NCBI GenBank assembly: GCA_963705895.1
Contig: OY970122.1
Coordinates: forward strand, 2,914,774 to 2,978,773
Direction of reading: 5' to 3'
Source of the DNA: Candidatus Aminicenantes bacterium
GTDB taxonomy: Bacteria > Acidobacteriota > Aminicenantia > Aminicenantales > JAFGAV01
DNA length: 64,000 nt
The notes below the pieces were generated by a model that was not told the DNA's origin, ran no database searches, and saw only the letters and a list, made by a program, of their open reading frames with translations. Numbering within the stretch: position 1 is the first letter of the stretch; every line of letters starts with the position of its first letter. Below, in pieces: positions 6,224 through 42,011 of this stretch. The position numbers and the translations under genes are program-made.

Positions 6224-6232
6224 CGGCGGCTC

Positions 6233-7201: not shown

Positions 7202-7212
7202 GCAATCCCTCC

Positions 7213-25166: not shown

Positions 25167-25696
25167 TCGAAAGTATCATGGCCCGCTCGAGGGAAGACGT
25201 GGCAAAGAAGAAGATCGGAAACAGGAAGATTTATTCCCTGGCCCGACTTCTCAAGGTCCGCCGCACGCTGAGGGCCCAAGGAAAAAAGGTCGTCTTCACC
25301 AACGGCTGTTTCGACCTTCTTCACGCCGGCCACATCAGGCTCTTTCGCGAGGCCAAGGCGCGGGGCGACGTCCTCATCGTGGCCCTGAACGAGGACGCTT
25401 CGATCCGAAGGCTCAAAGGTCCGGCGCGTCCCATTTTTCCGCTGGCCGAGCGGCTTGAGGTCTTGTCGGCCATCGGCGATGTCGATTATGTGACATGGTT
25501 CGGCGAGGATACCCCCCAAAAGATCATCGCCGCTCTCCTGCCAGATGTCCTGGTCAAGGGAGGGGACTGGACGCCGGAAACGGTCGTCGGCCGGTCCGAG
25601 GTCGAAGCCGCCGGGGGCAAGGTCATCATCATCCCCACGCTCAAGGGAAGCTCGACGACCGGCATCATCGACAGGATGCGGAAGGTTTGTTTGTAA
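25163..25696 (+). CDS. hldC: D-glycero-beta-D-manno-heptose-1-phosphate adenylyltransferase (stand-alone HldE domain II / RfaE2)
   Basis: [16 protein letters not shown]...[16 protein letters not shown]...[22 protein letters not shown] aligns closely with E. coli HldE domain II. Confidence 0.9.
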
Positions 25697-26379
25697 CCAG
25701 TAGGTCGAGGGTTCAAATACCAAACCAGCGGGGAGGCGACGAACCGGGCGCAAACCCTCCTGAAAAATGCGGTCGACGCGGTCCGCTCTCAAATCCCCCC
25801 CGGGTTTGAACTTGGACGATGAGGGCGACGGCTAGGTGGACAACGTTTGCTTCATAGGGGAAGGCGCCTGGGACAATTGGAGCGACCTGCTTTGGCCGCA
25901 CATGTGGGTTCTTTATACAAAAGCAGCCTACATCAATGGCAAAAAGGTTTGTCTTGTGAATGCCGCCATCGGCCCGCAATTCGACTCGATGGCGCCGGCC
26001 GCACCAGGGGATTTTGCCGGTCTTGCTAGCCCAAGGGGCTTGAGGAATCGGGCGAGTGGCTGCGGGAGGCGAATGGGGGCGGGGCAGACGGAGCGGGTAT
26101 CTTCCCCCCATATCGACGACTCACGGTTGACGGAGGTCTTCGCCCGGGAGGTCCTGGCGATGCTTGTCCGCCGCACATCCGACCGACCACCCTCCCTCAC
26201 CGAGCCTGAACCGGCATATTAAAGTCATTTTGCGGCGGCCGCAAGGATTAGACAAGATCCTGAACCGCCATCCCCGGACCCAGCCCGGGGACCAAAAAAA
26301 CTGCAAGAATCTGAATCACTCAGGCAGTACGGTTCTTTGAGACGAAGTCAAAAGCCGACGGCTCGGAGCTCCCGGTCGG

Positions 26380-27276
26380 TCACCGATTCGGGCGGAGGCG
26401 CCAGGCCTTGAACAGGATGTTGACCACTTTCCACTGATCGTCAAAAAAAGCCAGCTGAAAATAACTGGTGCTTGAAGGCGCATCCCCCGCCACAAAGGCC
26501 AGACCGTCCATCACGTCGAGCACACGAACCTCGTACTTGCGTTGATCGTCGGGAGGAAGACCTTGTTTGTCCTGGGTCATTTCAGCCAGCTGGCCCGGCC
26601 CTGTCCTTAAGATAATGGTCTTGCCCGTCTGTGGAATGCGGAAAACCTGGGCCGGCCTGACCTCCGGATGAACGGCTTTCTCCAGACGAGCGACGTCCCC
26701 GCCAAACCGGCCTTCGTAATAATCACGGGCTGTGGCCTTGATCACATCCCGTTCCTTTTCGAGGTCGAATTCGGGCGGCGCCATGCGGTTCATCGAGTCC
26801 GGGCCGTAGGTCCAAAGCACATTGACGATCTTCCACTGCCCATCGAAGTTGACCATGTTCAGATAATCATCGAACAAGGCCGAAGTCAGCTTGACGCAGG
26901 CCATGTCGTCCTTGACTTCAAGGACAGTGACCTTGAGCTTACGCTCACTCTCGTCGGGACGACCGATCTCGATTCGGCAATTCTCAACCATCTCCGAGAA
27001 GGATGAATAGTTGAGGACGATTTTGCCGGTCCTGATGAACAGGAACGGAGCGACCTTATTCAGGTCGGGGTGAAGAGACCGTTCCATGCGGGCTGCGTCC
27101 CCCGTGTAGAATCCTTCGCCGTAATCGAGAGCGGTCTTGATGATCCCCTGCTTATCCGTATTAGGAGCCGGGGCAGAGGTCGGGGCCGTTTGAGCTAAAA
27201 GCAGCACGGCCGCAGGGAGCACGGCCATGAAGATCGTGGTCAGCTTGCGCACCATTTCTTTCTCCTTTCTTCCCAT
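26380..27276 (-). CDS. Secreted protein with two tandem NTF2-like (putative lumazine-binding-like) domains
   Basis: Signal peptide, then an internally duplicated module of about 130 aa (DYGEGFYTGDAARMERSLHPDL...W / DYYEGRFGGDVARLEKAVHPEV...W). Confidence 0.6.
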   Translation of the reverse strand: MGRKEKEMVRKLTTIFMAVLPAAVLLLAQTAPTSAPAPNTDKQGIIKTALDYGEGFYTGDAARMERSLHPDLNKVAPFLFIRTGKIVLNYSSFSEMVENCRIEIGRPDESERKLKVTVLEVKDDMACVKLTSALFDDYLNMVNFDGQWKIVNVLWTYGPDSMNRMAPPEFDLEKERDVIKATARDYYEGRFGGDVARLEKAVHPEVRPAQVFRIPQTGKTIILRTGPGQLAEMTQDKQGLPPDDQRKYEVRVLDVMDGLAFVAGDAPSSTSYFQLAFFDDQWKVVNILFKAWRLRPNR

Positions 27277-27488
27277 AATATACCTTAGAACCAGGCCGAT
27301 GCTTATAACAGTTTTTTTGTGGGGAGTTGTGGCGTATTTTTTATGGTGGAATGCCTGTTTTGAAAAACCGTATGGCCTTAATCTGTCAGGGAATAATTGT
27401 CAAGACAACAATGACATGATGGCAAGAAAACAGCCGGTCGACCCATCCCATAGATTGTTTATATGAATGCGGGGAGAATTTATATCCG

Positions 27489-27857
27489 TCAACGCCCAAA
27501 AAGCATGAGATGATATGTTCCGACCTCGAAGAAGAGGCTAAATTTGCAGGATAGAGAAAACCTCTCCGCCTGAAAGCAATTGCCCCTATCCGAAGGGGAA
27601 GGCCCGACCGAAAATCTCTTGAAACTTGCCTCGGCGTATTGGTGGGTTATTATGACCGCTTTTAAATAAGCCCCCTCGTCGCCATAAAACGTGACATGCC
27701 AAACATCATTCGGATTTATTCTTGTGTCCGAGGGAATCCAGGAATATTTCGTCCAGGATGTGTTGAAGACTGTAGGAAAAGCGATTGTCTGATTTTTAGA
27801 GATGATGGGCTTGCGGCACCCGTCCTCGGGGACAGGACGACAGCGTATTGTTATCAA
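27489..27857 (-). pseudogene. Degenerate partial paralog of the C-terminal half of the 27920..28516 gene (tandem partial duplication)
   Basis: Motif WIPSDTRINPNDVWHVTFYGDEGAYLKAVIIT matches TTPSDTTIYPKDTWYLTACLYTGAKFYGAVVT. The 3' flanking DNA is also duplicated (27588-27657 versus 27875-27940). TTG start. Confidence 0.35.
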
Positions 27858-27919
27858 AATGCAGACCCCCCATTCAGAAGGGGAGGTCCGCCCCGAAAGC
27901 TTTTAGAACCTGCGCCGAT

Positions 27920-28516
27920 TTACTTGTAAGTGACTACGGCTCCATAAAACTTTGCTCCCGTATAGAGGCAGGCCGTGAGATACCAAGTATCCTTCGGATA
28001 GATGGTCGTGTCTGAAGGAGTCGTGATGTAATCCATTATGAGGGAACCATAGTTGCTTGACCAAAAGTCTACTATCTTGTAACTATAATCAACAGGGAAA
28101 TACTTATCGAACATTCTGCACCACGCTGAAGATCCCATGAAGTCCGTTATGATCCATTCCACTTTAACGATAGTCTTTGCACCTTTCGGGAAAATGACGG
28201 GGGCACAAAGGCAGGGAAAATAGGCATCACTGCCGGTAATACCGCCATATACGAAAAAATTGAAAAAGCCGGTAGCGCCGCCATCCCACGTAAACGCGGC
28301 CGCGGGGATATTAATCGTTTTTTGTATCCCTTTTGCCGGCGACCGCGCCATATCTGCGGAGGCCAATTGCGCGACGACCGTGCCTACGGCAACTTGGTTG
28401 CTCTTGTCCGAATTTAGCGTCCGCTCGGCGGCAAGGGCCGCCTGCGGCAGAAAATAACCCGCCACGACCACGACCGCAATCGTCGCCAAAACGATTGCCC
28501 ATCCTCTTTTGTTCAT
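27920..28516 (-). CDS. Secreted hypothetical protein (lower-GC islet)
   Basis: ATG at 28516 preceded by AAGGAGAGG. Signal MNKRGWAIVLATIAVVVVAGYFLPQAALA. Aromatic-rich beta-type sequence. Confidence 0.6.
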   Translation of the reverse strand: MNKRGWAIVLATIAVVVVAGYFLPQAALAAERTLNSDKSNQVAVGTVVAQLASADMARSPAKGIQKTINIPAAAFTWDGGATGFFNFFVYGGITGSDAYFPCLCAPVIFPKGAKTIVKVEWIITDFMGSSAWCRMFDKYFPVDYSYKIVDFWSSNYGSLIMDYITTPSDTTIYPKDTWYLTACLYTGAKFYGAVVTYK

Positions 28517-28650
28517 GGTATCCTCTCCTTTCTCCTTTGGCGGCCATAAAAACGTCCACACCTCATTCGAGATTTAGATATTTTTATTATGACCCCCCTT
28601 CCCATAACATAAAAAGCTTTTGTTGTTTTGTCAAGCGAATAAATCATGTT

Positions 28651-29288
28651 ATGCCCCATCTCATTTGTTATCTCCGAGGCGGGGATCCAGCAACTCATAA
28701 CCGCGCCGGCGCCTCGATTGCGGCCAACCCTCTTGCCGGCCTTCGGGACAGGGCTTCCGGGGGCGATATCCTTGGGCTCAAGTGGACTGACGTTGACCTG
28801 GACCACGGCATCATAACCCTATTCATGCAAAAGACCGGCGATTCAATTGAGATCCCCACGCTCCCGATGGTCAGCGAATTGCTATCGCACATGAAGCGAG
28901 TTGCCGGCAAGTCCGCCTATATTTTTACGAACCCCAAAACGGGAGAGAAAGGCTAGGCAGCATTAAAACGGCGTTCAGGCGGGCGCTGGAACGCTCCAAG
29001 CTGGATGACAAAGGCTATCGCTTCCAGGACATTCGGCGGACGCTTGCTACCATGCTTCACAATCGGGGCGTCAGCCTGATTAAGATTCAGCGACTGCTTA
29101 GCCATAAATCGGTCCTGACCACGGAACGATATCTTGGGGTCAAATTTGAGGAAACCCGGCAAGCGGTCATGCTGCTTGCTTCCGTGCTAGGGCCGGCCGA
29201 GTGCACAGTAAGTGCACAGTTAGCCCCCGCTCCGCCTTCAAACCCTTTATTATCAGAGGCATCACAAGCCAGAGAAAACCCTTCGTAA
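28651..29288 (+). pseudogene. Tyrosine recombinase/phage integrase remnant: 5'-truncated catalytic domain with an internal +/-1 frameshift near 28940-28956
   Basis: Frame 1 reads ...LAGLRDRASGGDILGLKWTDVDLDHGIITLFMQKTGDSIEIPTLP...SAYIFTNPKTGEKG*. Frame 0 continues ...LGSIKTAFRRALERSKLDDKGYRFQDIRRTLATMLHNRGVSLIKIQRLLSHKSVLTTERYLGV (box II with R and Y). No integrase N-terminal domain lies upstream. Confidence 0.6.
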
Positions 29289-29397
29289 GCACCGAACTCG
29301 TGTCCCTCTTTGTTGGGGGCATCCATAGAGTTGCACATATGTTTTGGGGCATAATCGCCTCTCCTCAGCCTCTATGTCGGAAGGGAGAACGCATGGG

Positions 29398-30040
29398 TCA
29401 GAAAGCCGTCTTGATCTTTCTCCTGCCCAAATAGAGGAGGCCGCCGAGAAGGAGGCCGATGACTCCCACCGTAATCGATCGCCAGGGGATGAAAACCAGA
29501 AGCGCCAGACATATTGCCAGGCCCGCGGCGGGCACCGCCTTGGGATGGGGGACTGCCTTCAGGCCAAGCCGAAGCGCCGAACCGTTGGCAAGTGCATAAC
29601 AGATAAGGGGAGCAAAAGCACTGATTGCCACTACTCCCAAGAGCGGCATGAGCACCGCTGCCACGGCAATCAATCCCCCCCTGAATAACACGACAAGCGT
29701 CGGTGTGTCGTGCTTGGGATGAACCGTAGCCAGGACATGCGGCAGCTCCCTGGGTTGGGCCATGGCGAAGGACATACGTGACACGCCGAGGATGGAGGTC
29801 AGAAGCACGCTGGCCGTAGCCACAAGGCCGCCCGAGGAGACGATATAAACAAGAATGACGATGTTGGCGGCGATGAGGATCGACAGGACCAGGGCTGGCC
29901 CGGCCAAGCCGGCCACGATCCCGGTGACGACATAGATTCCGCCCGCGATGATCGCCCCCAGCCCGATGGCCGTTGCATCGAGCGGGTTCAGGGCCGGCTT
30001 GAATATTCGTCTTGCAGCCTTATCCCCGCCGCGGGCCGAA
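29398..30040 (-). pseudogene. APC-family amino-acid permease remnant with internal deletion (TM1-2 fused to TM10-12)
   Basis: In-frame upstream of the GTG at 29916 is ...KPALNPLDATAIGLGAIIAGGIYVVTGIVAGLAGPALVLSIL (an APC N-terminus). Joined directly to ...SRMSFAMAQPRELPHVLATVHPKHDTPTL...LYLGRRKIK (an APC C-terminus). Too short for a 12-TM permease. Confidence 0.5.
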
Positions 30041-30180
30041 GGTCGTTTGTTTTCACGTCGGTCCTTAGGAAGCGAGGAATGATGACTTCCTCCATCCCCT
30101 GCGCTATTGCATCACGAGGAAAGGGCGGCCAAAGCTGTTCGAAAGTCCTTCGAGTCTTGTTTCCCGGATTCTAAAAAAGT

Positions 30181-30879
30181 ATGATGATTGATTATAAGGT
30201 CATGATCCGTTTAGTGAACGTCTCGAGGCAATACGGCTGGGGAGAGCAAGCCACCCACGCCCTGCGGGAGGTGAGCATCGAGGTCCCTGACGGGGCCTTC
30301 GTCAAGGTCGTGGGCACTTCCGGCTCGGGCAAGACGACGCTGCTCAATATCATCGGCGGCCTGGACACCGAGTATTCCGGGACGGCTGAGGTGGCCGGCC
30401 TGAACCTCAGAGATAGGACTGACAGGGAGCTCAGCCGTTTCCGCAACCGGACGGTCGGTTTTGTCTTTCAGCATTTTCATCTGCTCGACCACCTGGATGC
30501 CCTCCAGAACGTCGGCCTGGCTGCGTTCTTTTCCGATGCGGACGTCCGCCGGATCGCGGAGCGCGCCGAGGAAGCCCTGGTCCGGGTGGGATTGGGTGAT
30601 AAGCTTCATCAACGGCCGGGGCAGCTGTCCGGGGGCCAGAAGCAGAGGGTGGCCATCGCCCGGGCCCTCTTCAACCGGCCGCGCCTGATCCTGGCCGACG
30701 AGCCCACGGGCAACCTGGACACGCGGACCGGGGCGCAGGTCATCGACCTTTTCCAATCCCTCAACCGCGAAGACGGGCTGACCATCGTGGCCGTGACTCA
30801 CGAGGACCAGCTTTTCCGTCTGGCCCAGCGGGCCGTCCGTCTCGAGGACGGCCGGATCGTGGAGGACAGCGTCCGATGA
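30181..30879 (+). CDS. ABC transporter ATP-binding protein (MacB/LolD/FtsE-type)
   Basis: [36 protein letters not shown]. Confidence 0.9.
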
Positions 30880-32231
30880 AGCCCCGCAGCCTGCGCCGGC
30901 TCATTCTCCAGAACATCGGACGGAACCGGGCCAATTTCGTTTTTTCCGGGATCGGGATCGTGGCCGGTATCTCGAGTTTCATCTTTTTTATCGCCCTGGG
31001 CGGAGGGATCAAGCGAGTCGTTTCCCGGGAGATCTTTCCCGTGGAGGCCGGACGCATTCAGGTCGTGCCCGCGGCGGCGCAGTTCGAATCCTGGATGCGC
31101 GGACGGAAGATTGACGACGACACCCTGGACCGGCTGGCTGGAATTCCCGGGGTGACCGCGGTCTACCCCCGGATGAAGCTGACCGTGCCGGCGACGATGA
31201 CCCTCCTCGGCATCCGGATTCCGAGTGAGGATTTGATTCGCCTGACCAGGATGCCGGGCGTTACGCCGGACATGGTTTTGGCGGTCAAGAAACTCCAGGT
31301 CTGGATGGAGATCATGGCCGACGGCATCGACCCCCGCCTGGTGAAGGGCGACGCCGTATTCGGCCCATTCGCCGATCAACCGCCCGGCCAGCCGATTCCC
31401 GTTCTGCTCTCCAAGAGGCTCGTCGAAATCTACAACTCGAGCTTCGCCAAGTCACGTTCCCTGCCGCCGATCAGCGAAATCCTCATCCCCTACATCCCCC
31501 GCTTGCCCTTGACGCTGAACGATTCCTACATCACCCGGGACATGACCGGCCCCAAGGTCGAGTCTGCGGTCAAGATCGTCGGCACGAGCGCCTATGCTCT
31601 TCTCGGGGGGGTGACCATGCCGCTCGACACGGTCCGGCGCCTGAACCGGCAATTTGCCGGGGAAGCCGCGGCCCATGCTTACGATATGGCCGTGCTCGAG
31701 GTGCCCGCCTCGGACAAGCTGACTCCTGTCCAGGAGGCGGTGCGCGGACTGGGCCTCGACATCGACATGAGCCAGAAGCGCATGGCCGAGAGCGTGGCTT
31801 TCGCCGTGACGCTGGTGACGCTTGGCTTCAGCCTCCTCAGCCTGGCCATGGTGGCCGTGGCCGCGGTCAACATCGCCCACACATTCTTCATGATCATCTA
31901 TGAACGAAAACGCGAGATCGGGCTGATGAGGGCCCTGGGGGCGTCGCGGCGCGACATCCGCTCCCTGATCCTAGGGGAGGCGGGGCTGGTGGGTGCCGCC
32001 GGGGGGCTGGCGGGCCTCATCCTGGGCGTGGTGTTGTGCCTGGGGGTAAACGTCCTGGCCGTCCGCCTGCTTCCTGACTTTCCGTTCAAGCCCCGGAAGT
32101 TTTTCAGCTATCCGGCCTGGCTCTTCGCGAGCGGGCTCGTCCTGGCCGTCTGCTTTTGCCTGGCCGGCGCGTTTTCCCCGGCCCGCCGCGCCGCCAGGAT
32201 GGACCCGGCCGGTACGCTGTCGGGCCGCTGA
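30876..32231 (+). CDS. ABC transporter permease, FtsX/MacB-like (4 TM with a large periplasmic loop)
   Basis: N-terminal TM, an approx. 250-aa periplasmic domain, C-terminal three-TM FtsX domain. ATGA overlap with the ATPase gene. Confidence 0.9.
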   Translation: MKPRSLRRLILQNIGRNRANFVFSGIGIVAGISSFIFFIALGGGIKRVVSREIFPVEAGRIQVVPAAAQFESWMRGRKIDDDTLDRLAGIPGVTAVYPRMKLTVPATMTLLGIRIPSEDLIRLTRMPGVTPDMVLAVKKLQVWMEIMADGIDPRLVKGDAVFGPFADQPPGQPIPVLLSKRLVEIYNSSFAKSRSLPPISEILIPYIPRLPLTLNDSYITRDMTGPKVESAVKIVGTSAYALLGGVTMPLDTVRRLNRQFAGEAAAHAYDMAVLEVPASDKLTPVQEAVRGLGLDIDMSQKRMAESVAFAVTLVTLGFSLLSLAMVAVAAVNIAHTFFMIIYERKREIGLMRALGASRRDIRSLILGEAGLVGAAGGLAGLILGVVLCLGVNVLAVRLLPDFPFKPRKFFSYPAWLFASGLVLAVCFCLAGAFSPARRAARMDPAGTLSGR

Positions 32232-32481
32232 CGGCCCTCTCATTCAGGGATACAACGCCGAATCGCGCTCCGGCTTCGTGTCTTCCTGAGGTTCAGACTC
32301 CGGGAATAGGAAGAATGAGGTTGAGTTTGAACAGGGCTCGCGCCGCCGCCCCCGAGCGAACACCCGGGCGGAAGAAGCTTCCCTTGCTGCATCGGCAGGC
32401 TGAAAGATAAAAAGGGGGAGCCGGGCACGGGCTGAACGGGGGCGAAGCTCAGTGCCGAAATGACATGGGAGTGAGCGCCGG

Positions 32482-33762
32482 CTATTTCAGGTAGCCGAGG
32501 CTCTTCAGCCGTTTGATGATCGCTTGGTCAAAATGTGTTTCGATCGGCTTGTCCGAGGAGTCCTTCCTCGGACCGTAGGAGGCGATCGTTTGGATCCGGT
32601 GGGCCGCAACGAACTTGGGAGTCATGGCCTCCAGGCACACCCGGCCGTCCATATCCTCGGCCACGGGCAGGCCCACGAGGTAAAGCAGCGTGGGGCAAAT
32701 GTCGACCAAGGCGACGGGTTTCTCGAGCCGGACGCCGCGCTTGATCCCCTGGCCGGAGATGATGAACACTCCGTTCTTCGTGTGTTCGCCCCTCATCAGG
32801 CCATGGTCGGAGGAGATGATGATGGTCGTATCGGCGCCGGCCGCATCCAGGAAAGGCTTGATCATCTCGTCCATGGCCAGGTAGTAGTTCCTCTGGACGT
32901 CTCCCGCTACGGCTATGACGGCCAGCCTTTTTTTGGATTTCTTGCCCGTAAAGCGATGGCCGACGACATCGACGCCGCTCAAGTAGATAGCGAAAACCCG
33001 GGGCTTTTGGGATCGGTAAAGGCGAATTCCGATCTCGCTGTAGATCGCATCCGTCATAAAAGCCCAATCCGTCTGGGTGACGACAGGCGGAACCTTGGTG
33101 AACTTCGATTGGGGGATTATCTTTTCGGAACTTTGTCGATACTTTTTTTCTCCCTCCAGGCTCGCCTTCTTGGTCTCGTCTTCGAGCGAGGGCGGATAGA
33201 CCATCTGCGGAACATCGCTGTAGAACGACCCCTTCCAGATCGGCTGGAGACCCGGGCCCCGGACGCCCAAATAGGAGGAGACCATGAATCCCTTGACCGC
33301 TTCCACGGGCCAGGTGATGTACCATCCCACGATTCCCACGGAGATGTCCTTCTCGGAGAGGATGTTCCAGAAGGCCTTGGTCCTGCGGCGGTTGCTCGTG
33401 TTGGGGATCATCTTTTGGGTCTGGGGCTCGATGATGACGAAGCCGTTGATCCCGTGCTTTGACGAGAACTGGCCCGTGGCCACGTCGGTCCAATAGAGCG
33501 CGCTTCCCTTCCCCCATTCATTGGTCTCGATCTTGGCCGAGCAGGCGCCCTTGATCAGCCGGTCGAAGTTGGGCAGAAGGCCCTGCCCTCTAAGGGTGTC
33601 GACCAACTCCCAGTCGAGGCCGTCGATGCCGATGTACAAGATCCTGCGCTGCCCTCCGACCCGGCAGGATACCGCCAGGAAGGCGAGACATATCAGACCG
33701 ATAAAAAAAACCAGGATTCTTTTGCTCGACATCGCCCCTCCTTTATTCGATCCGCGCTTCAT
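32482..33762 (-). CDS. Alkaline-phosphatase-superfamily enzyme, type I phosphodiesterase/nucleotide pyrophosphatase (NPP)-like, secreted
   Basis: ILYIGIDGLDWE metal-binding start and TGQFSSKHGI, which resembles the NPP TG..P..HGI motif. Signal peptide. Start could be 33732. Confidence 0.85.
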   Translation of the reverse strand: MKRGSNKGGAMSSKRILVFFIGLICLAFLAVSCRVGGQRRILYIGIDGLDWELVDTLRGQGLLPNFDRLIKGACSAKIETNEWGKGSALYWTDVATGQFSSKHGINGFVIIEPQTQKMIPNTSNRRRTKAFWNILSEKDISVGIVGWYITWPVEAVKGFMVSSYLGVRGPGLQPIWKGSFYSDVPQMVYPPSLEDETKKASLEGEKKYRQSSEKIIPQSKFTKVPPVVTQTDWAFMTDAIYSEIGIRLYRSQKPRVFAIYLSGVDVVGHRFTGKKSKKRLAVIAVAGDVQRNYYLAMDEMIKPFLDAAGADTTIIISSDHGLMRGEHTKNGVFIISGQGIKRGVRLEKPVALVDICPTLLYLVGLPVAEDMDGRVCLEAMTPKFVAAHRIQTIASYGPRKDSSDKPIETHFDQAIIKRLKSLGYLK

Positions 33763-33837
33763 GAAATATGAATAATATTATCAAATCCCAGGAGAAGTCA
33801 ATCGAGACAGAGAAGGAGGCTGTTCCGCTATTCGGGC

Positions 33838-35118
33838 TTATTTCAGGTAGCCGAGGGTCTTCAGCCTTTTGATAATGGACTCATCGAAATTCGTCTCGAT
33901 CGGCTTGTCTGACGAGTCCCTCCTCGGGCCGTAGGAGGCGATCGTTTGGATCCGGTGGGCCGCGACGTGCTCGGGAGTCATGGCCTCCAGGCATACCCGG
34001 CCGTCCATGTCCTCGGCCACGGGCAGGCCCATGAGGTAAAGCATCGTGGGGCAAATGTCGATCAAGGCGACGGGTTTCTCGAGCCGGACGCCGCGCTTGA
34101 CCCCCGGCCCGGACAGGACGAAAACGCCGTTCTTCTGGTGCTTGCCCCTCATCAGGCCGTGGTCGGAGACGAGAAAAACAAAGGTCTTATCATCGATGGA
34201 GGAGACGATAGGCGCGATCATCTCATCCATGGCCAGGTAGCAGTTCTTCTGCACGTCGGCGAATTTCCCGGGAGCCTTGGCCTTCCGCTTGCGGTTCTTA
34301 TGGGTGAACATATGCCCGACCGTATCGATGCTGCCCAAGTAGACGGCGAAGACCTCCGGTTTCATCTTCTCGTAGAGGTGCCGTCCGACCTCGAGATAAA
34401 TAGAGTCGGACATGATGGCCCACTCCGCCTTGGTGACGGTCGGCTGGCTTGTCGTCGGAGCCTCGAGGGGGATGATCTTGCGAATCCTCTGTTGGTACTG
34501 GGTTTCTCCCTTATGCACGTAGTCCTTAGTTTCGTCGGCAAGGGCTCGGGGGTAGATCATGTCCGGCTCTTGGGCATAATACATGCCCCTGATCGTGGGC
34601 TGGACATCTTTATAGGTAAAGTAGGAGGACACCATGAACCCCCTGACGTTCTCCACCGGCCAGGTGATATACCAGCCTACCACGCCCACCGAGACCCCCT
34701 TCTCCGAAAAGATATTCCAAAAGGCCTTGGTTTTCCTGCGGTTGCTCGTGTTGGGGGTCATCTTCCCGGTCTGGGGGTCTGTATAAACGAAGTCGTTGAT
34801 CCCGTGCTTTTTGGAGAACTGGCCGGTGGCGATGTCGGTCCAGTACAGAGCGCTTCCCGCTCCCCATTCATTGGTTTCGATCTTGGCCGAGCAGCCTGTC
34901 TTGATCAGGCGGTCGATGTTGGGCAGCAGGCCCTGATCGCGCAGGGTGTCGATCATCTCCCAATCGAGGGCGTCGATCCCGAGGAAAAGGATCTTGTTGG
35001 GAGTTCCCGGATGACAGGATAAAGAGACGCCCGCGAGCAAAGCCAGAGCGAAACCGGCGACCTTGCCGACGAACGAACGAAGGATCATCCGTTCCGAACC
35101 TTTGAATTCCAGCTTCAT
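33838..35118 (-). CDS. Second NPP-like alkaline-phosphatase-family paralog (tandem), secreted
   Basis: ILFLGIDALDWE...TGQFSKKHGI. The last approx. 90 codons are nearly identical at DNA level to the downstream paralog. Start MKLEFK at 35118. Confidence 0.85.
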   Translation of the reverse strand: MKLEFKGSERMILRSFVGKVAGFALALLAGVSLSCHPGTPNKILFLGIDALDWEMIDTLRDQGLLPNIDRLIKTGCSAKIETNEWGAGSALYWTDIATGQFSKKHGINDFVYTDPQTGKMTPNTSNRRKTKAFWNIFSEKGVSVGVVGWYITWPVENVRGFMVSSYFTYKDVQPTIRGMYYAQEPDMIYPRALADETKDYVHKGETQYQQRIRKIIPLEAPTTSQPTVTKAEWAIMSDSIYLEVGRHLYEKMKPEVFAVYLGSIDTVGHMFTHKNRKRKAKAPGKFADVQKNCYLAMDEMIAPIVSSIDDKTFVFLVSDHGLMRGKHQKNGVFVLSGPGVKRGVRLEKPVALIDICPTMLYLMGLPVAEDMDGRVCLEAMTPEHVAAHRIQTIASYGPRRDSSDKPIETNFDESIIKRLKTLGYLK

Positions 35119-35176
35119 AGTTCCATCCAATCTACTTGCCGTGATTCCAGATGTCAAGCGCGAAAGAGCTCCGAGC

Positions 35177-36022
35177 CTAGTACAAGACGCGGTCTTCGCC
35201 CCGGGCCGTGACGAGGGACTCGATCCCCCGGAGCAGCAGGTCCCGCCGCACGAGCAGCTCATCGATCTCGGAGCTGGTCAGATAATCCTCCACGGCCGCC
35301 CGAATGCCGGCGTGGGTCAAAGCCCGCATCCCTGCGACGAATCGGCGCGGGAGCCGGCCGATTCCGGGAGTGCCGAGGTCATCGCCCACGGGATAGAGGA
35401 GTCGGCCGGTGTAAGGCGGCAGGTCGCGGAAGGACTGGCTGTGATCGATGAGAACCAGGCGCCAGTCTTCTGTGTAACGCATGTTTTGAAGCGTCCGGTC
35501 GGAATTGGCGATGAGACTGTCGAACGCTCTCTGCAACGAACGGGCCTTGTCGCGCGCGTCCTGGATGCCGGCCGGCGGGACGATATTCTCCTTGGCGAGC
35601 TTGAGCTCGCTGTAGGACAGGTCCACCCAGAGCTGGAGCGATCCCGCGTAGCCGTGGTAGGAGCGCTCGACGACGGGGGGGACCATGTTGAGCCCCAGGA
35701 TCCTATCCAGGCGATAGGCGGCGATCTCATGCTCCCATTTATCAAAACGGCCGGACCCGGCCGCGGACGGCCGCTTCCAAAGGCCGAACGCTTCGACTTG
35801 GCCCTTTTTTAGGCGCAGTCTCTTGGGATGGGTCACACCCTCCCCGACGTTCTCGGCGTCGATGATCTTGGCCTCTTTCAGGAACTTTTCCCAAAACGGC
35901 CGGCGGGCGATATCATCGTCGGTCAATTGAGCTCGACTCCAAAGGCCGAGACCGAGAACCAGGGATGCCGCGAGGAGGCCTAGGACCATCCGTCTCCTCC
36001 GCCGGGCAAGATCGGGTTTCAT
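35177..36022 (-). CDS. Secreted FAM20/four-jointed-like secretory-pathway kinase homolog (DUF1193-like)
   Basis: Signal/Tat-like N-terminus MKPDLARRRRRMVLGLLAASLVLGLGLWS. EIAAYRLDRILGLNMVPPVVERS recalls the FAM20 motif FHLDRILGFRRVPPVVGR. FDSLIANSDRTLQNM...LVLIDHSQSF recalls FDFLIGNMDRHHYE...HLDNGRGF. Confidence 0.7.
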   Translation of the reverse strand: MKPDLARRRRRMVLGLLAASLVLGLGLWSRAQLTDDDIARRPFWEKFLKEAKIIDAENVGEGVTHPKRLRLKKGQVEAFGLWKRPSAAGSGRFDKWEHEIAAYRLDRILGLNMVPPVVERSYHGYAGSLQLWVDLSYSELKLAKENIVPPAGIQDARDKARSLQRAFDSLIANSDRTLQNMRYTEDWRLVLIDHSQSFRDLPPYTGRLLYPVGDDLGTPGIGRLPRRFVAGMRALTHAGIRAAVEDYLTSSEIDELLVRRDLLLRGIESLVTARGEDRVLY

Positions 36023-36675
36023 TTTCGAGTCAATCGCTCGAGAAGCACACGGCTGTTTTCCTCAATGCAGAGCCATTCCGCTTCGGTCAGCCCGGCCCCC
36101 AGGCCGACGCTCTTCCATCCGTCGGGGAAGAGAAGATCCTCGCCGGAATGGGCGTCGCTGTTGACGACCAAGGGAATCCCAAACTCATGTGCCTTGCGTG
36201 CCACGTGGCCGTTGGTCAGGCAATGGCCCTTCCGCGCCGAGAGCTCAAAAAAGATCCCCTTTTTCCCGGCCAGACGGCAGTCCTCGTCCGAGACAAGGCC
36301 GGGATGCGCCAAGATATCCGCTCCCCCTTCGATCGCGGCCCGGTTGGTGCCGGGCCGGACCGGCTCGACGACGGTTTCCCCGTGCACGATGACCGGCCGC
36401 GCCCCCGCTCTGCGGGCGAGGTCGATGAGCTCGGGGATGAGCTCGGGCGGGACATGGGTGATCTCGACCCCGGACAAAAGGATGAGGCCGCTTATCGCGT
36501 TGAGTCGGCGGCAAACGCGGCCCGTTTCCTCGATGAGCCGCTCGATGTTCGAGAAATCCGCGTGGTCGGTGAGTCCCAGGGCCCGGTAACCGCGGACCTC
36601 CGCCTGACGCGCCGCTTCGGCGGGGAGCAAGAGCCCGTCGCTCGAAAACGTGTGGGAATGAAAATCGATGACCAA
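36019..36675 (-). CDS. PHP-family metal-dependent phosphoesterase (YcdX-like)
   Basis: PHP motifs IDFHSHT, LTDHAD, GVEITH, AHPG, NSDAHS. ATGA overlap with the kinase-like gene. Confidence 0.85.
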   Translation of the reverse strand: MVIDFHSHTFSSDGLLLPAEAARQAEVRGYRALGLTDHADFSNIERLIEETGRVCRRLNAISGLILLSGVEITHVPPELIPELIDLARRAGARPVIVHGETVVEPVRPGTNRAAIEGGADILAHPGLVSDEDCRLAGKKGIFFELSARKGHCLTNGHVARKAHEFGIPLVVNSDAHSGEDLLFPDGWKSVGLGAGLTEAEWLCIEENSRVLLERLTRK

Positions 36676-36738
36676 GGATTCACCCTCCTCTCCTCTGTGC
36701 GAATTCTAGCATGGTCCTGCCCGGGGGTCAAAAATCGC

Positions 36739-36784
36739 AAAAAAAAGCTCACGGCGTCCCAGTTCAGGACTGGGACGCGTGAGC
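36739..36784 (-). terminator. Rho-independent terminator on the minus strand (16-bp GC-rich stem, loop, T8)
   Basis: Plus-strand A8 (36739-36746) followed by GCTCACGGCGTCCCAGT-TCAG-GACTGGGACGCGTGAGC. On the minus strand this reads hairpin then TTTTTTTT. It separates the C26 gene from the PHP-kinase operon. Confidence 0.6.
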
Positions 36785-36960
36785 TTCCTTCAAGAGAGCA
36801 GTTTTACATCGTGCTCAGGATGCACGTCGGCAGCCGCTCTTGCAGTGGCTGACCCGAGGAACCAAGTATCTCGACATGGTCGGCTCCTTTCCCAAAAAAT
36901 CAAAATCCTATAAATAATATAGGATAACTTACTGCCTGCGTCAACGGATAAATGAAGGCT

Positions 36961-38100
36961 TCAGTGCCTGCCCGCCAATCGGGCAGTGAACCAGGCCCAC
37001 AACTTCTTGTGGAATTCGAGGCTCGGCGGATGGGCTTCCAAAAAACCTTTCCAGGTCAAGGGCGAGGTTTCCTGGGGAGAAAGGCGATAGGGACGGGACG
37101 CATCCCAGAGGTTCATGTTCTCGGGATGGAACTGGACGGCCAGGACGTTCGGGAATCGGTCGTGGCTCATGGCCTCAACGATCTTGCCGTCGAGCGAGGT
37201 GGCCTCGACCCGAAGGTTCTTGCCCAGCTTGGCCACGGCCTGATGATGGGAGCTCAGGACATATGGCTGGGCGTCGGGGGCCAGCCCCAGCTCCCGGGCG
37301 AGCTTGCCCTTGTCCAGCGGAGCTATCGGATGAAGCGTCCCGGCCGGAAGATCGGACGTCGGATAGAGCTTCGCGTAGGGGTTATCGTGCCAGTCGGGCA
37401 GCCCCAGAAGAAGGATATCCTCGATGAACATCTTGCCGTAGACCTCGTTCCAGATGTCCTGGATGAGCGTCCCGCCCGCGGCCACGTTCAGGCTTTGGGC
37501 GCCCAGGCAGATGGCCAGGATGGGATAGTCGGGCCGCGAGCCGAGGAGGGGCTCGAATTTCTCATCCTGGTAACCGCCCAGCAGTTGATAGAGGACGGAC
37601 AGCTCGAATTCGTGGCGGGCCGGGTCTACGATCGTCGTCAGGAGGCTTGTTGGGCTCCCGTACATCTCGGGGGGAATATCCGGACCGCCGGTGAAGATCA
37701 TCCCGTCCGATGCCCGGAAGATCCGCTCTATCTCCGGGCTGAGGACGTTCGCCCGAAAGACATCCTTGGTCTCGAGAGAGGCCGGGATCTCATGGAACTT
37801 GAACCAATCCAGGTGCTCGTCCCGGACCAAGGCTTTGGCCGCCTCGATATCGAAGGATTCCTTTTGATGGTAGACGCCGATGACCGTCAGGTCCGCGAGG
37901 TCGATGAGCTTCTCCGCGCGGAGGGCCGCGATATCCCTGACTCGATTCGCTGTCGGATGAAAAACGACCAGCCGCACGCCGCTGTGTTCGGGTCCGACCG
38001 TATCGAAGAACCTGTTCTCGGATCGTGCGGCGGAAGCGGCCGATAGGACCGGAACCGCCGCGGCCAGGATGAGGATCGCCGCGAGGAGTCTCTTGGTCAT
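36961..38100 (-). CDS. Secreted class-I glutamine-amidotransferase-like / peptidase C26 (gamma-glutamyl hydrolase family) protein with N-terminal extension
   Basis: ILAICLGAQSLNVAAGGTL (Cys nucleophile), SSHHQAV, VQFHPE. Signal peptide. Confidence 0.8.
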   Translation of the reverse strand: MTKRLLAAILILAAAVPVLSAASAARSENRFFDTVGPEHSGVRLVVFHPTANRVRDIAALRAEKLIDLADLTVIGVYHQKESFDIEAAKALVRDEHLDWFKFHEIPASLETKDVFRANVLSPEIERIFRASDGMIFTGGPDIPPEMYGSPTSLLTTIVDPARHEFELSVLYQLLGGYQDEKFEPLLGSRPDYPILAICLGAQSLNVAAGGTLIQDIWNEVYGKMFIEDILLLGLPDWHDNPYAKLYPTSDLPAGTLHPIAPLDKGKLARELGLAPDAQPYVLSSHHQAVAKLGKNLRVEATSLDGKIVEAMSHDRFPNVLAVQFHPENMNLWDASRPYRLSPQETSPLTWKGFLEAHPPSLEFHKKLWAWFTARLAGRH

Positions 38101-38284
38101 GGGATGTTGGGCCTCTCTTTCAAAGGGAAGATTATCACAGCAGGCGGCAAAATACTCGTCCGGACCCGGACCGCCGTTCCGGCTCGGGCGCCGGGCAGGA
38201 AAGGAAAGGAAGCGGCCGAAGATGATCCAGGGCGGACGTTTTGCCTTTCTTTGATAAAGCCGTTTTTATGATCACCTCCGACGG

Positions 38285-38929
38285 TCAGGCGAGACGGATC
38301 AGGGCGAGCAGGGCCAGACAGACCGCGACGGCGGCCGGGATGATCAGGTAATAGGCCCCCGTCCGCTTGAAGCCGAGCCGCTCGCCCGCCCAGGCACCGA
38401 GCGGGACGGTGACCAGAGACAGGCCGATGGCCCAGGCTGCGTAATGCCAGGCCAGAGGCGTGTGCGTCCCAGGAACGACACAGGCGGGGATGCCCGTGCA
38501 GAACTTCACCAGGGGAAAGGCGGCCACGGCCAGCAGGGCCGAAGCCCCGCCCAGGAGTGACCGTCCGAGGGCCCGGGATTTCCAGGCCGTCCGGGCCAGG
38601 GAGAAGACGAGGGCAAAGGCCAGGCCTTCGGTGACGAAGGCGAAGAGCGGGTTGGCCACCGCGCCGCTGCGAATGGAGAGCGAAAGCAGGCGGGCGTCGA
38701 ACAGCTTGAACAAGCAGGTGACGAGAACCAGAACGGGCAAGACGGCCATTCCCCCCGAACGCGTCCAGGCGGCGCTCACGAAAAACAGCGCCGCGGCCGT
38801 CATGATCGAGCCCGAAGCGAGGGAGGCGCAGCTCTTGAGTCCAAGCCCCAGCCCGGCTTCAGCCAATCCCCAGGCCGCCCCGAGAAGGATGACCACGCCC
38901 CATGACCGAGAAGAGGACTTTCCCGACAT
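38285..38929 (-). CDS. Hypothetical polytopic membrane protein
   Basis: Five to six hydrophobic helices; no recognisable motif. Confidence 0.5.
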   Translation of the reverse strand: MSGKSSSRSWGVVILLGAAWGLAEAGLGLGLKSCASLASGSIMTAAALFFVSAAWTRSGGMAVLPVLVLVTCLFKLFDARLLSLSIRSGAVANPLFAFVTEGLAFALVFSLARTAWKSRALGRSLLGGASALLAVAAFPLVKFCTGIPACVVPGTHTPLAWHYAAWAIGLSLVTVPLGAWAGERLGFKRTGAYYLIIPAAVAVCLALLALIRLA

Positions 38930-39089
38930 GGCGAACTCCTTGTCTTTTTTGGTCGAAGAGATGAAACCATTATAGAGCGCGTTCCGCGTCTAATCAATGT
39001 CAAGGGGGCCGGTTTTTTCCCCGGGCCCGTGGGAACGGGACTTCCCCCCGACGTTGACTTTCCTCATCCCCTCCGCTATAAGGAACTGG

Positions 39090-40394
39090 ATGAACAAGAA
39101 GATTCCGATCCTGATCATGGCCGTCCTTTCGCTCACGATCACGATGCGGGCCTCCGGTTCGGCGGCGTCTCAAGCCCTGGAGAAAAGGATTCCGGACATC
39201 GTCCGGAGCATCACCCCGTCGCTGATCGATGTTCGACGGGACATTCATGCCCATCCCGAGCTCTCGACCAAGGAAGTCCGCACCGCGGCCCTTGTTGCCG
39301 GCTATCTTGCCAAGCTGGGGCTCGAGGTCCGGACCGGGATCGGCGGAACGGGCGTGCTCGGCATTCTTCGAGGGGGGAAGCCCGGACCCGTGGTCGGCAT
39401 CCGGGCCGAAATGGACGCCCTGCCGATCACCGAGGAGACGAACCTCGACTTTGCCTCCCGGGTCAAGGACGAAGTCGACGGCCGGGCCTGCGGCGTCATG
39501 CATGCTTGCGGCCACGACATCCATACCACGGTCATGCTGGGGGTGGCCGAGGTCCTGTCCCGGCTGCGCCGAGACCTGCCGGGGACCGTGCTCTTCGTTG
39601 CGCAGCCGGACGAAGAGGTGAGCGACGGCGCCCAGCGGATGCTGAAGGATGGGGTCTTCAAAGACATCCGACCCGATGTTATGTTCGCCTTCCACGTCAA
39701 TGATGAGGTCAAGGCCGGGGTCATCACCTATGTGCCCGGATTTGCCACGGCCAACTGCGATGGGTTCCGGCTGACGATCAAGTCCGAGGGATGCCACGGT
39801 TCCGAACCCTTCCTGTGCGTGGACCCCATCATGGTCGGGGCCCAGGTCGTGATCGCCTTGCAGGGCATGATTGCGCGGGAGATCAACGTTTACGACAAGA
39901 CCGTCATCACCGTGGGTTCTTTCCATGCCGGGTCGGCCTCGAACATAATTCCCGATAAGGCCGTGCTCGATGCCACGGTCCGAAGCTACGGCGAAGAACA
40001 GAGGAAGGTCCTTAGGCAGAAGATCGAGCGGGTCATTGCCGGGATTTGCCAGGCGGCCCAAGCCGCCTATGACCTCGACTACCATTTTGGGACGGTATCG
40101 CTCTACAACGACCCGGCCCTCATGAAACGGATCCTGCCCACCGTGGCCCGCGTTCTCGGGGGAAATCAGTTCCTCAAAGAAGACCCGCCGGAGATGGGCG
40201 GCGAGGATTTCGGCTTCTTCGCCCAGGAAGTCCCCTCTGTCATGCTCCTTTTAGGGGCCGTGCCCAAGGACCTGGACAAGACCGCTGTGCATTCCCCGAC
40301 TTTTAGGGCCGACGAGGACAGCATCCCGCTGGGCGTGCGGGTCATGTCCTCGCTGGTTATCGACTACCTGTTCGATCCGCTCGTGAAAAAATAA
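39090..40394 (+). CDS. M20D family amidohydrolase (hippurate-hydrolase-like) with signal peptide
   Basis: MHACGHDIHT metal-binding motif. Start MNKKIPILIMAVLSL at 39090. Confidence 0.9.
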   Translation: MNKKIPILIMAVLSLTITMRASGSAASQALEKRIPDIVRSITPSLIDVRRDIHAHPELSTKEVRTAALVAGYLAKLGLEVRTGIGGTGVLGILRGGKPGPVVGIRAEMDALPITEETNLDFASRVKDEVDGRACGVMHACGHDIHTTVMLGVAEVLSRLRRDLPGTVLFVAQPDEEVSDGAQRMLKDGVFKDIRPDVMFAFHVNDEVKAGVITYVPGFATANCDGFRLTIKSEGCHGSEPFLCVDPIMVGAQVVIALQGMIAREINVYDKTVITVGSFHAGSASNIIPDKAVLDATVRSYGEEQRKVLRQKIERVIAGICQAAQAAYDLDYHFGTVSLYNDPALMKRILPTVARVLGGNQFLKEDPPEMGGEDFGFFAQEVPSVMLLLGAVPKDLDKTAVHSPTFRADEDSIPLGVRVMSSLVIDYLFDPLVKK

Positions 40395-40875
40395 AAGGGA
40401 CGAGGAAACCGTGCGGCTGGCGAGAGGAGTCCGTCGTGTTTCGTGCCGCGTCGAATTCTATGCCGGGTCAAAGGCCGAAGAAACTCCCCGCCGCGTCCAT
40501 TGCCAAGGCAAGGATATGAACGTCGACGAGGTCCTAGGCAGGCGGCGGGTCATGGACAAGGCTTCCGGCAGAACGACCGAAGAATTCACCCTGGTCCTTG
40601 ACGGACGGATCGCCAGGATCCGCCGGACGATCTCAGGCCGCTGGTCTCTCCTGCTTCCTCTTGCCTGATTTTTTTTCCAGGGTTTTCACCCTTCCCTCGA
40701 ACCTCTCAACTTCCGGTTTCGCAGTCAGTTGGCCCAGACCCTCGTCCCGGGCGACGTGGAAAAAGGCGGGGACCGGCTTGGCGTTGCCTCTCCCGCAAGG
40801 CCCGGCGGCGGGCAATATCTTTAGGCTTATTCGAGTGGGGAAGAATCGTTTTCGGGGAAGCCGTGGTGAGGCGGC

Positions 40876-41709
40876 CTATAAGACAAGCGCTTCATCGAGG
40901 GCAAAACGGCCGTGCTCGTCCATCTTCACCCGGCCCGCGGGGATATGGGGGTCATGACAAAAAACAACGATCCAGCGCCCGGCGACCGCGCGGCGCAGGA
41001 AATCCTCTTTCTCCCGGAGAAGCGTCTCGGCCGACATGTCATAGCCCATCAAGAAAGGGAGGGGGAGATGATGAGAGGTGGGTATCAAGTCCGAGGGGAA
41101 GGCAATGGATTCCGCGCCGTTCTTGACTTCTAGCCATTGCTGACCCCTCGTATGTCCGTTATTGCCGTGAACCCAGAGGCCAGGGTAGATTTCCTGCGAT
41201 CCGTGAGTGAGCTCGAGGGAAGCCTGCTCGAGAACCCGCACATTCTCGCTCAGGTAGCTGGCCCTCTCGCGGGGATTGGGGTTGCGGGCGGTTTGGTAGT
41301 TGTCCTCTTGGAGAAAGACCCGGGCCTGCGGATAGCAGAGTTCGAGATCGGCGGCACTCCCGGGCCGGTACCTGGATATCCCCCCGCCATGGTCGAAGTG
41401 AAGATGAGAGAGGACGATGTCCGTAACGGTCTCGGGGTCGATACCTGTTTCTTTCGGAGAGAAATGACGGATGGCGTAGATCCGCCGAAGTTTTTCGGAC
41501 CACTTGTCCCCCGAGCCCGCGTCCACCAAGAATCGTCTCTCGCCGGTGTCGACGAAGAGGGCCCGGGTAGCAAGAGAAATACAATTTTCTGCATCGGGGG
41601 AGATCAGACCGGACCAGATATTCTTGGGGACCGTCCCGAACATCGCCCCTCCGTCCAGGCGGTAAAAGCCGAGATTGGGGGCGGAGACTCTGAATTTTCC
41701 GAAAGTCAT
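40876..41709 (-). CDS. MBL-fold metallo-hydrolase
   Basis: HLHFDHGGG motif. Confidence 0.85.
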   Translation of the reverse strand: MTFGKFRVSAPNLGFYRLDGGAMFGTVPKNIWSGLISPDAENCISLATRALFVDTGERRFLVDAGSGDKWSEKLRRIYAIRHFSPKETGIDPETVTDIVLSHLHFDHGGGISRYRPGSAADLELCYPQARVFLQEDNYQTARNPNPRERASYLSENVRVLEQASLELTHGSQEIYPGLWVHGNNGHTRGQQWLEVKNGAESIAFPSDLIPTSHHLPLPFLMGYDMSAETLLREKEDFLRRAVAGRWIVVFCHDPHIPAGRVKMDEHGRFALDEALVL

Positions 41710-42011
41710 CGGGCGAACGCTGGCCTCTTCCGTAACCGCCGGCGGCAGGGAATTCCAGAAAACATCTCAATATCAAGTTACCACACCGGGGGCACTCCAA
41801 CAAGGATTCGTTGTCCTGGACTTCGAGGATCAAAGTCCGGCGTCAGCCCATCCCCGATTGGGGCCGGGTAACCCGCCGGCGGGCCATGACCCGAGCGCGC
41901 CCGGGACCCATCCCCCGGGCCCATGTGTTTGGGGTTGCCCGCAACGGAGAAATTTTGTATCTTGGGAATGCCATAATTCTTCGTCGGTCATATCTTCAAA
42001 GGAGTCCGATC

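Follow-up and report, generated by a model that had tools for sequence, protein, structure and literature searches.

In a 64-kb stretch of Candidatus Aminicenantes DNA (the window, meaning this whole stretch at its full length), four genes are packed on the minus strand at positions 32482-36675, encoding a PHP phosphoesterase, a putatively exported kinase resembling the FAM20 kinases and two NPP-fold lipoproteins, NPP1 and NPP2. An earlier note had read these genes as one operon and as a coherent writer and eraser module for an extracytoplasmic phosphate mark. All four open reading frames (ORFs) are present and were named correctly; with a confidence slightly above even, we regard the stretch as a lineage-specific juxtaposition of three co-directional units, which do not make up a conserved machine of four genes. 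As for the kinase, it is a dispersed paralogue within a large family centred on Aminicenantes, and the identification of an exported PPP-type metallophosphoesterase as the family's partner is strongly supported. The window locus appears to be a lineage-specific satellite of an undescribed and probably periplasmic phosphorylation system.

Conservation of the gene combination

The gene combination does not extend to distant homologues of the kinase. We studied 80 species-level kinase loci from GTDB genomes (L001-L080, to which all counts out of 80 refer), whose kinases are 42-56% identical to that of the window; searches with tblastn and hidden Markov models found an NPP-like gene in none of them and a PHP gene beside the kinase in none, the sole exception being a 26%-identical PHP match by tblastn on the opposite strand in L004. 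The nearest outgroup kinases, P0019 (58% identical) and P0027 (54%), have unrelated surroundings, with neither NPP nor PHP adjoining. Seen from the other side, no kinase adjoins the NPP homologues at 45-49% identity: two of these lie amid YfhO and sulfatase-family genes, one of these also with PMT_2 and GT9, and a third is in an unrelated context. The combination is confined to relatives with kinase identities of 61-71% in the loci that we fetched, or of about 57-96% by contig matching, and within this clade the whole neighbourhood is syntenic, running from M20, a 214-amino-acid membrane protein and C26 through the kinase to FtsX/ABC. With everything around them equally conserved, the co-occurrence of NPP and PHP with the kinase carries little independent weight. 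The kinase-NPP link is lineage-specific, limited to one shallow, fully syntenic clade of Aminicenantes; outside it, kinase homologues lack PHP and NPP neighbours, the outcome that the earlier note had named as refuting its reading.

Within the clade, the gene set itself varies. Between C26 and FtsX, the order is PHP-kinase-NPP-NPP in the window, PHP-kinase-NPP-DUF5916 in L081 and PHP-kinase-NPP in L089; L084 has GltS-kinase-NPP-NPP and no PHP, L085 and L087 have GltS-kinase with neither PHP nor NPP, and in L090 the kinase is followed directly by FtsX. Close relatives may thus have zero, one or two NPP copies. In L085 (7899-8756) and in P0005, the first 15 codons of PHP, VIDFHSHTFFSDGLLL, are fused in frame to the signal peptide of the kinase, a structure that we read as a natural in-frame deletion of PHP that left the kinase behind PHP's start codon.

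Transcription units

The region contains ten promoter-like sites, against an expectation of 2.1 +/- 1.4, and such sites are placed exactly upstream of PHP, NPP1 and NPP2 (Table 1). Promoters at orthologous positions were found in 5/5 kinase-to-NPP spacers and 2/2 NPP-to-NPP spacers. The kinase-to-NPP spacer contains TTGACA-N17-TAnnnT in L081, L084 and L089 and an N18 variant with TACGCT in L088; outside the promoter elements, the spacers vary in length and, as far as inspection shows, in sequence as well. At the loci lacking PHP, the kinase follows the glutamate symporter gene with only a Shine-Dalgarno (SD) sequence between them. With a conserved promoter of sigma-70 type ahead of each of PHP, NPP1 and NPP2, the sequence suggests three transcription units (PHP-kinase, NPP1 and NPP2), with read-through between them possible. 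The single operon of the earlier note fits poorly with these internal promoters, conserved in relatives, and with the variable gene set.

The -10 elements of NPP1 and NPP2 end 9-10 nucleotides before the first in-frame ATG (35118-35134 and 33762-33777, respectively). Either the two mRNAs are nearly leaderless, or translation begins at the second ATG (35088 and 33732).

The kinase

No Pfam or NCBIfam model is matched by the kinase at threshold. Its scores are 17.9 bits with FAM198 (PF15051; cut-off 25), 15.5 with HipA_2 (PF20613; 27) and 32.8 with TIGR03843 (172), and Fam20C (PF06702) gives no match; by the gathering thresholds of Fam20C and FAM198, it is not a formal member of the Pfam FAM20 families. 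Its homologues behave similarly: sub-threshold matches to Fam20C are found in 6 of 28, to HipA_2 in 26 and to PI3_PI4_kinase (PF00454) in 11, and P0245 alone passes the Fam20C model (29.4 vs 26.8 bits). A profile built of the 28 homologues nevertheless retrieved only FAM20A, FAM20B and FAM20C from the PDB (E 5e-7 to 0.04), in alignments that span the alphaC helix, the catalytic loop and the metal-binding loop. The alphaC segment WExEIAAYxLDxLLG is aligned with NAEIAAFHLDRILDF, FDSLIANxDRtxxN with FDFLIGNMDRHHYE and LIDHS with HLDNA; in the FAM20A alignment, D175 pairs with the Asp of GNMDRH and D193 with the Asp of HLDNA. The AlphaFold model of the kinase, with a mean confidence (pLDDT) of 90, has the Fam20-type atypical kinase fold. 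It scores highest against DrFam20C1 (19.5), the Hydra Fam20 xylosylkinase (19.4) and C. elegans Fam20 (18.8), and lower against PI4KIIa (17.3), CtkA (15.3), HipA-type kinases (~12) and CotH (11.4). K83, E99, D175, N180 and D193 do not vary among the 28 homologues, nor in any of the 12 copies assigned to the window group, and the catalytic set of FAM20 is complete: the beta3 Lys, the alphaC Glu, the Asp of xNxDRxxx and the DFG-equivalent Asp. Profile and fold agree with the earlier note here, and "FAM20-like kinase" is a fair description of both fold and active site.

At the N-terminus of the kinase, a charged n-region precedes a hydrophobic core and an A-x-A site followed by Gln, typical components of a signal peptide of about residues 1-31 with cleavage between SRA and Q, and these n-, h- and c-regions predict an extracytosolic location. 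Together with NPP1 and NPP2, this makes three of the four proteins with export signals, as had been claimed, PHP being the one without. Gln32 (window ~35927-35929), at the +1 position of the predicted cleavage site, is invariant in 28/28 aligned kinases, which may point to a pyroglutamate at the N-terminus or to an element for recognition.

The likeness to FAM20 thus includes action outside the cytosol behind a signal peptide, in the bacterial case a predicted one. The differences are substantial. The mature bacterial kinase has about 250 amino acids, whereas the solved Fam20 chains have 350-450; the window kinase has no cysteine, making disulfides impossible, and it lacks the disulfide-stabilised luminal domain with Fam20-specific N-terminal segments; its predicted compartment is the periplasm and not the Golgi; and the partners of its family are a PPP phosphoesterase and TLC transporters. 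The PI4K type II, HipA, CtkA and CotH kinases share with the bacterial family the sub-threshold HipA_2 and PI3_PI4_kinase matches, and CtkA and CotH are, likewise, bacterial kinases acting outside the cytoplasm, but their structural scores all fall below those of FAM20. The kinase has, unlike HipA, no HipB-like antitoxin partner and, unlike CotH and CtkA, its genomic surroundings are not those of a spore coat or a pathogen. We also considered a HipBA-like toxin-antitoxin pair formed by PHP and the kinase and rejected it on the signal peptide of the kinase, on FAM20 being the closest relative and on the housekeeping type of the PHP protein across phyla.

The kinase family and its partners

A word-indexed search with the kinase gave 1,220 matches, and when 1.84 billion representatives were searched exhaustively with a profile, the matches numbered 4,641 at E<=1e-3, 1,923 at E<=1e-10 and 578 at E<=1e-30, the first two figures being counts of representatives at 50% clustering. 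Among the matches listed, every entry named by its source is a "hypothetical protein" and nearly all come from metagenome-assembled genomes of Candidatus Aminicenantes; a metagenome scan with the single kinase sequence yielded no more than six loci. In a neighbour-joining tree of 186 kinase copies, the window clade is nested among dispersed "orphan" paralogues. No curated model in Pfam or NCBIfam covers the family. Our literature search for bacterial FAM20-like exported kinases, or for the PPP/TLC cluster described below, found no description, in line with the earlier note, which knew of no bacterial system of this kind, and a review of Fam20 kinases does not mention bacterial relatives.

Outside the window clade, the family has a context of its own. 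About 45 of the 80 loci share a conserved cluster (an example is given in Table 1), which begins with a TLC gene with HEAT repeats (-), STAS (-), an exported PPP-type Metallophos gene (+), a diverged kinase paralogue that we call K1 (+) and a second TLC gene (+), and continues with a phytase-like beta-propeller lipoprotein (-), two to three tandem kinases (+) and an RsbW-like gene (-). Counted over the 80 loci, PPP is found in 36, TLC in 36, the RsbW-like gene in 43 and the phytase-like gene in 26. The PPP protein has a signal peptide and the signature GDxHG/GDxxDRG/GNHE, and in 34 of 149 family representatives (P0259, P0288, P0299, P0313, P0324 and 29 others), signal peptide, PPP and kinase are fused in one protein; fusions of the kinase to an NPP-like or PHP domain were found in 0 of the 149. 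Adjacent to the kinase in 36/80 loci and fused to it in 34/149 representatives, the PPP protein is therefore taken as the family's partner. The idea of an exported kinase working with an exported phosphoesterase thus survives at the level of the family, with PPP as the enzyme, and fails for PHP and NPP as general partners.

The TLC proteins of the cluster match Pfam TLC above threshold (60-69 bits) and TIGR00769 weakly, and in this resemble the NTP/NDP exchangers of Rickettsia, Chlamydia and plastids. In contrast to those, the cluster's hosts are known only from environmental metagenome assemblies and show no sign of an intracellular lifestyle, one of the copies has HEAT repeats, and the direction of transport that we propose, ATP out to the periplasm, is inferred.

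K1 (e.g., L058 5799-6647), the paralogue adjacent to PPP, retains K83 and D193; in the alignment, where a misalignment is possible, the catalytic-loop residues D175 and N173 are gone and Asp stands in place of N180. A paralogue of this kind, its catalytic loop diverged, is reminiscent of Fam20A, and by analogy, K1 may serve the family as a pseudokinase partner in the way that Fam20A serves Fam20C.

These observations bear on the possibility that the kinase-like protein of the window is without export or without catalytic activity, for instance as a pseudokinase anchored in the membrane, at a locus with no phosphorylation function. The choice of start codon gives it some footing: a second ATG at 35989 has the better SD, GGAGGAG, and yields a protein of 270 amino acids, the length of both P0001, the representative of the kinase's 90%-identity cluster, and P0002, the next closest homologue, and starting there would remove the charged n-region. 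The periplasm normally lacks ATP, too, and the window has no TLC gene to supply it. The relatives, however, have conventional n-regions rich in Lys and Arg, which speak for the upstream start, and the A-x-A site before Gln is conserved; the canonical catalytic residues are invariant in hundreds of copies, K1 excepted, and TLC-type transporters cluster with the family in 36/80 loci. We consider this explanation very improbable.

The NPP and PHP proteins

NPP1 and NPP2 are paralogues with 63-64% identity, and both pass Pfam Phosphodiest (PF01663) with 87 and 82 bits, respectively. A direct search of the PDB with the NPP1 sequence found no match; with a family profile, the best match had E = 6e-10, and the structural model (pLDDT 87) has the NPP-type fold, scoring 25.7 against the Xanthomonas NPP, 25.6 against ENPP7, 25.3 against PafA, 25.1 against ENPP4 and 24.5 against ENPP6, with sulfatases ranking close behind. 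The description of the pair as tandem NPP-type paralogues was thus accurate. The metal ligands D49, D265, H269, D319 and H320 are invariant and H327 is nearly so, and the two-metal ligands and the position of the nucleophile are kept as in the NPPs (Xanthomonas NPP, ENPP4/6/7) and PafA. The lipoboxes VSLSC and LAVSC match the lipoprotein pattern, their Cys being followed by Arg in most relatives. Judged by this intact two-metal site and Ser nucleophile, NPP1 and NPP2 are predicted to be catalytically competent lipoprotein phosphoesterases. They depart from the NPPs in that the nucleophile, at the invariant Ser89, is Ser and not Thr, in that the last His ligand comes only seven residues past DHG, as in the iPGM/phosphopentomutase-type enzymes, and in being lipoproteins. 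We know of no characterised member of this family, which JGI labels "predicted AlkP superfamily phosphohydrolase/phosphomutase."

The kinase might, alternatively, not act on proteins at all: as a kinase of an envelope glycan, a lipid or a small polyol, similar to the FAM20B xylosylkinase or PI4KII, it would work next to NPPs acting on envelope phosphodiesters. The phytase-like beta-propeller lipoprotein in the canonical cluster agrees with this, as do the NPP homologues elsewhere amid the envelope-glycan genes YfhO, PMT_2, GT9 and sulfatase-family genes. Yet the family partner bears the signature of PPP phosphatases, and the named models closest to it, though only weakly matched, are those of protein Ser/Thr phosphatases and Ap4A hydrolases; we treat a glycan or lipid kinase as a serious but minority possibility.

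The PHP protein was previously called YcdX-like. It is a PHP phosphoesterase, matching NCBIfam NF004981 over its full length (274 bits, cut-off 117) and falling marginally short of Pfam PHP (24.6 vs 26.4), but the YcdX-like attribute does not hold, with 18.7 bits against the 264 required by NF006702; the HisJ model TIGR01856 fails similarly (17.4 vs 90). It shares the PHP fold and the N-terminal HxH motif with HisJ/HisK and YcdX. The HxH metal motif comes at once, with no hydrophobic segment, and the family is wide: homologues at E<=1e-10 number over 6,900, and members 52-60% identical are found across Aquificota, Desulfobacterota, Verrucomicrobia and other phyla. By sequence, the protein looks like a cytoplasmic enzyme of housekeeping type, possibly a histidinol-phosphatase, and an enzyme of that kind is implausible as the eraser of an extracytoplasmic mark and is effectively excluded from the module.

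Among four outgroup contexts of PHP, the closest relative (60% identity; L098 85-6276) lies within hisD-hisC-hisB-hisH-hisA-hisF-PHP-hisIE, two Desulfobacterota members (L100 and L101, ~3100-9900) lie not by his genes but between MiaB/BFN genes and tol-pal, and the fourth context is uninformative. In some lineages, the family may supply the histidinol-phosphatase that is otherwise missing. No his genes occur in the 64-kb window, and with a his operon in one of the four contexts only, we did not adopt a confirmed histidinol-phosphatase as its identity.

Discussion

Our findings make a functional module of the four genes unlikely. In such a module, the kinase would mark a secreted or surface substrate, the NPPs and perhaps PHP would remove or process the mark, and the ABC/FtsX pair next door may export the substrate. 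The genes are, indeed, co-directional and tightly spaced, the kinase and both NPPs have export signals to the same compartment, and kinase-NPP adjacency is seen in the window, L081, L084, L088, L089 and probably about nine more contigs; as the kinases of the family do pair with phosphoesterases (PPP and the phytase-like lipoprotein), a non-orthologous replacement by NPP is conceivable. All of this co-occurrence, however, is found in a single clade that is syntenic throughout (M20, C26, FtsX/ABC) and in none of the 80 distant loci; NPP varies between no and two copies, L085, L087 and L090 having lost it and retained the kinase, and each NPP gene has a conserved promoter of its own. The zero fusions to NPP or PHP compare with 34 to PPP, PHP is cytoplasmic and dispensable, and ABC/FtsX is convergent, with a DUF5916 gene intervening in L081.

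The juxtaposition of three units, which we favour, faces difficulties as well. Folding of the intergenic spacers found no internal terminators, and the four genes may be co-transcribed or linked by read-through; the start/stop coupling of PHP and the kinase recurs in relatives; and within the clade (~57-96% kinase identity), PHP and NPP are often on the kinase's contig, as seen in the fetched loci and otherwise concluded from contig matching. No homologues of TLC, PPP, the phytase-like protein, STAS or RsbW were found in the 64-kb window, leaving the satellite locus with none of the canonical genes beside it. Sulfatase-family genes, likewise members of the alkaline-phosphatase superfamily, are found no more than 7 kb from dispersed kinase copies at 6/80 loci (Table 1), a raw count that hints at a recurrent pairing of kinase and superfamily member and weakly favours the module. 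Finally, we infer export, kinase activity, the substrate and the direction of TLC transport alike.

Under the three-unit reading, the locus may work as follows. In the first unit, PHP and the kinase would be transcribed from the conserved extended -10 promoter, with the start of the kinase abutting or overlapping the stop of PHP. The kinase would be exported by Sec, cleaved at the A-x-A site before the invariant Gln and active outside the cytoplasmic membrane, where K83 and E99 would hold ATP, D175 would serve as the catalytic base and N180 and D193 would bind the metal; its target would be a hydroxyl on an exported protein or an envelope glycan. In the family at large, PPP would reverse the reaction, and the TLC-type NTP/NDP exchangers could deliver ATP to the periplasm. 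NPP1 and NPP2, the second and third units, would be expressed each from its own conserved promoter, and these lipoproteins of the window clade may act on phosphoesters in the kinase's compartment. That they act on the very product of the kinase we doubt; alternatively, they may have an independent role, such as turnover of envelope phosphodiesters or phosphate scavenging.

A wider proposal, which we hold tentatively and think less likely than not, is an extracytoplasmic system of Aminicenantes in which FAM20-like exported paralogues are countered by a PPP eraser and supplied with ATP by TLC, and in which the dispersed kinase of the window has recruited the NPPs. A possible Fam20A-like pseudokinase would take part, and STAS and RsbW-type partner-switching genes flank the cluster. 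If true, the proposal would describe the first periplasmic kinase/phosphatase system to be fed with ATP and a candidate prokaryotic relative of FAM20.

In animals, the FAM20-type kinases solved the century-old puzzle of secreted phosphoproteins. Here, a large bacterial family, by sequence exported and catalytically intact, has FAM20 as its closest known fold, which raises the question of phosphorylation of proteins or glycans in the periplasm of diderms, a compartment usually assumed to be free of ATP. It raises the question of ATP supply equally, for which the TLC-type transporters in the cluster point to a directly testable answer. In practice, the four genes should not be handled as a unit, and the target of interest is the kinase with the PPP/TLC cluster.

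Features of the locus and its surroundings

Table 1. Coordinates of genes and signals in the window and of selected features at other kinase loci (aa, amino acids).
Feature	Position	Strand	Remarks
PHP phosphoesterase (PRK06361/NF004981)	36019-36675	-	218 aa; TTG start; cytoplasmic, no signal peptide
FAM20-like kinase, predicted exported	35177-36022	-	281 aa (270 aa from start 35989)
NPP1, NPP-fold alkaline-phosphatase-superfamily lipoprotein	33838-35118	-	426 aa; alternative start 35088; lipobox VSLSC; Ser89 nucleophile
NPP2, NPP-fold lipoprotein paralogue	32482-33762	-	426 aa; likely start 33732 (416 aa); lipobox LAVSC
Promoter, PHP-kinase unit	36703-36731	-	TTGACC-N17-TGcTAGAAT, extended -10; same position in L081, L086, L089
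Promoter, NPP1	35129-35157	-	TTGACA-N17-TAGATT; kept in L081, L084, L088, L089
Promoter, NPP2	33772-33801	-	TTGACT-N18-TATTAT; counterpart in L084
Intrinsic terminator	36739-36784	-	15-bp stem + T8; conserved with compensatory changes
20-codon ORF MSRYLVPRVSHCKSGCRRAS or small RNA body	36814-36876	-	SD AAAGGAGCC
Promoter, small unit	36916-36944	-	TTGACG-N17-TATATT; invariant in four relatives; downstream of C26 gene, outside PHP-kinase unit
Peptidase C26/class-I glutamine amidotransferase-like, exported	36961-38100	-	Constant upstream syntenic neighbour
ABC ATPase	30181-30879	+	Convergent; constant syntenic neighbour within clade
FtsX-type permease	30876-32231	+	Convergent; constant syntenic neighbour within clade
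Canonical kinase cluster, example	L058 1394-12046		Layout repeated in ~45 of L001-L080
Sulfatase-family genes near kinases	L014 1948-3519, L028 10868-13003, L046 11261-12730		Some with TPR repeats
Sulfatase-family genes near kinases	L074 11259-14356, L002 14412-16550, L060 12178-14448		Some with TPR repeats

The spacing of the four genes is largely as first described. The sequence does show the 4-base ATGA overlap between the PHP and kinase genes, which holds only if the kinase starts at the ATG at 36022, and the gap of 58 bp between the kinase and NPP1 is right. The gap of about 75 bp between NPP1 and NPP2 is correct to the first ATG and becomes 105 bp with the likelier start at 33732, which has the SD AAGGAGG and agrees with the 416-amino-acid database entry P0123.

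The terminator of Table 1, which the earlier note had taken to insulate the genes from C26 upstream, is real: it closes the transcript of a small unit and C26 and insulates PHP, and the 183-nucleotide stretch bearing it folds with z = -4.1. About 75 nucleotides of the small unit are nearly identical in eight loci (L081-L087 and L089) whose flanking proteins are 59-85% identical to those of the window. The unit is kept even at loci without PHP, and therefore travels with C26. An Rfam search over 29000-41000 gave only two spurious matches, the terminator hairpin scored as a miRNA and a lncRNA, and no family for the small unit, and an exact look-up of the 20-codon peptide in the protein collection found no entry. 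The unit could be a small RNA or a micro-protein.

On the other flank, the convergent plus-strand neighbour, first described as a MacB/FtsX exporter, consists of an ABC ATPase and an FtsX permease in two separate ORFs: the permease scores 73 bits with FtsX (cut-off 25.5) vs 20.1 with MacB_PCD (27), and the ATPase, a separate polypeptide, scores under the cut-offs of LolD, DevA and MacB. A tRNA scan over 24000-42000 found no tRNA gene. Adjoining the ABC/FtsX pair, the GC content falls from about 0.61 to 0.535-0.547 over 26000-30000, a segment with a phage-integrase fragment (28333-28956, +) and a truncated amino-acid permease (29398-29916, -) that looks like a decayed mobile-element remnant.

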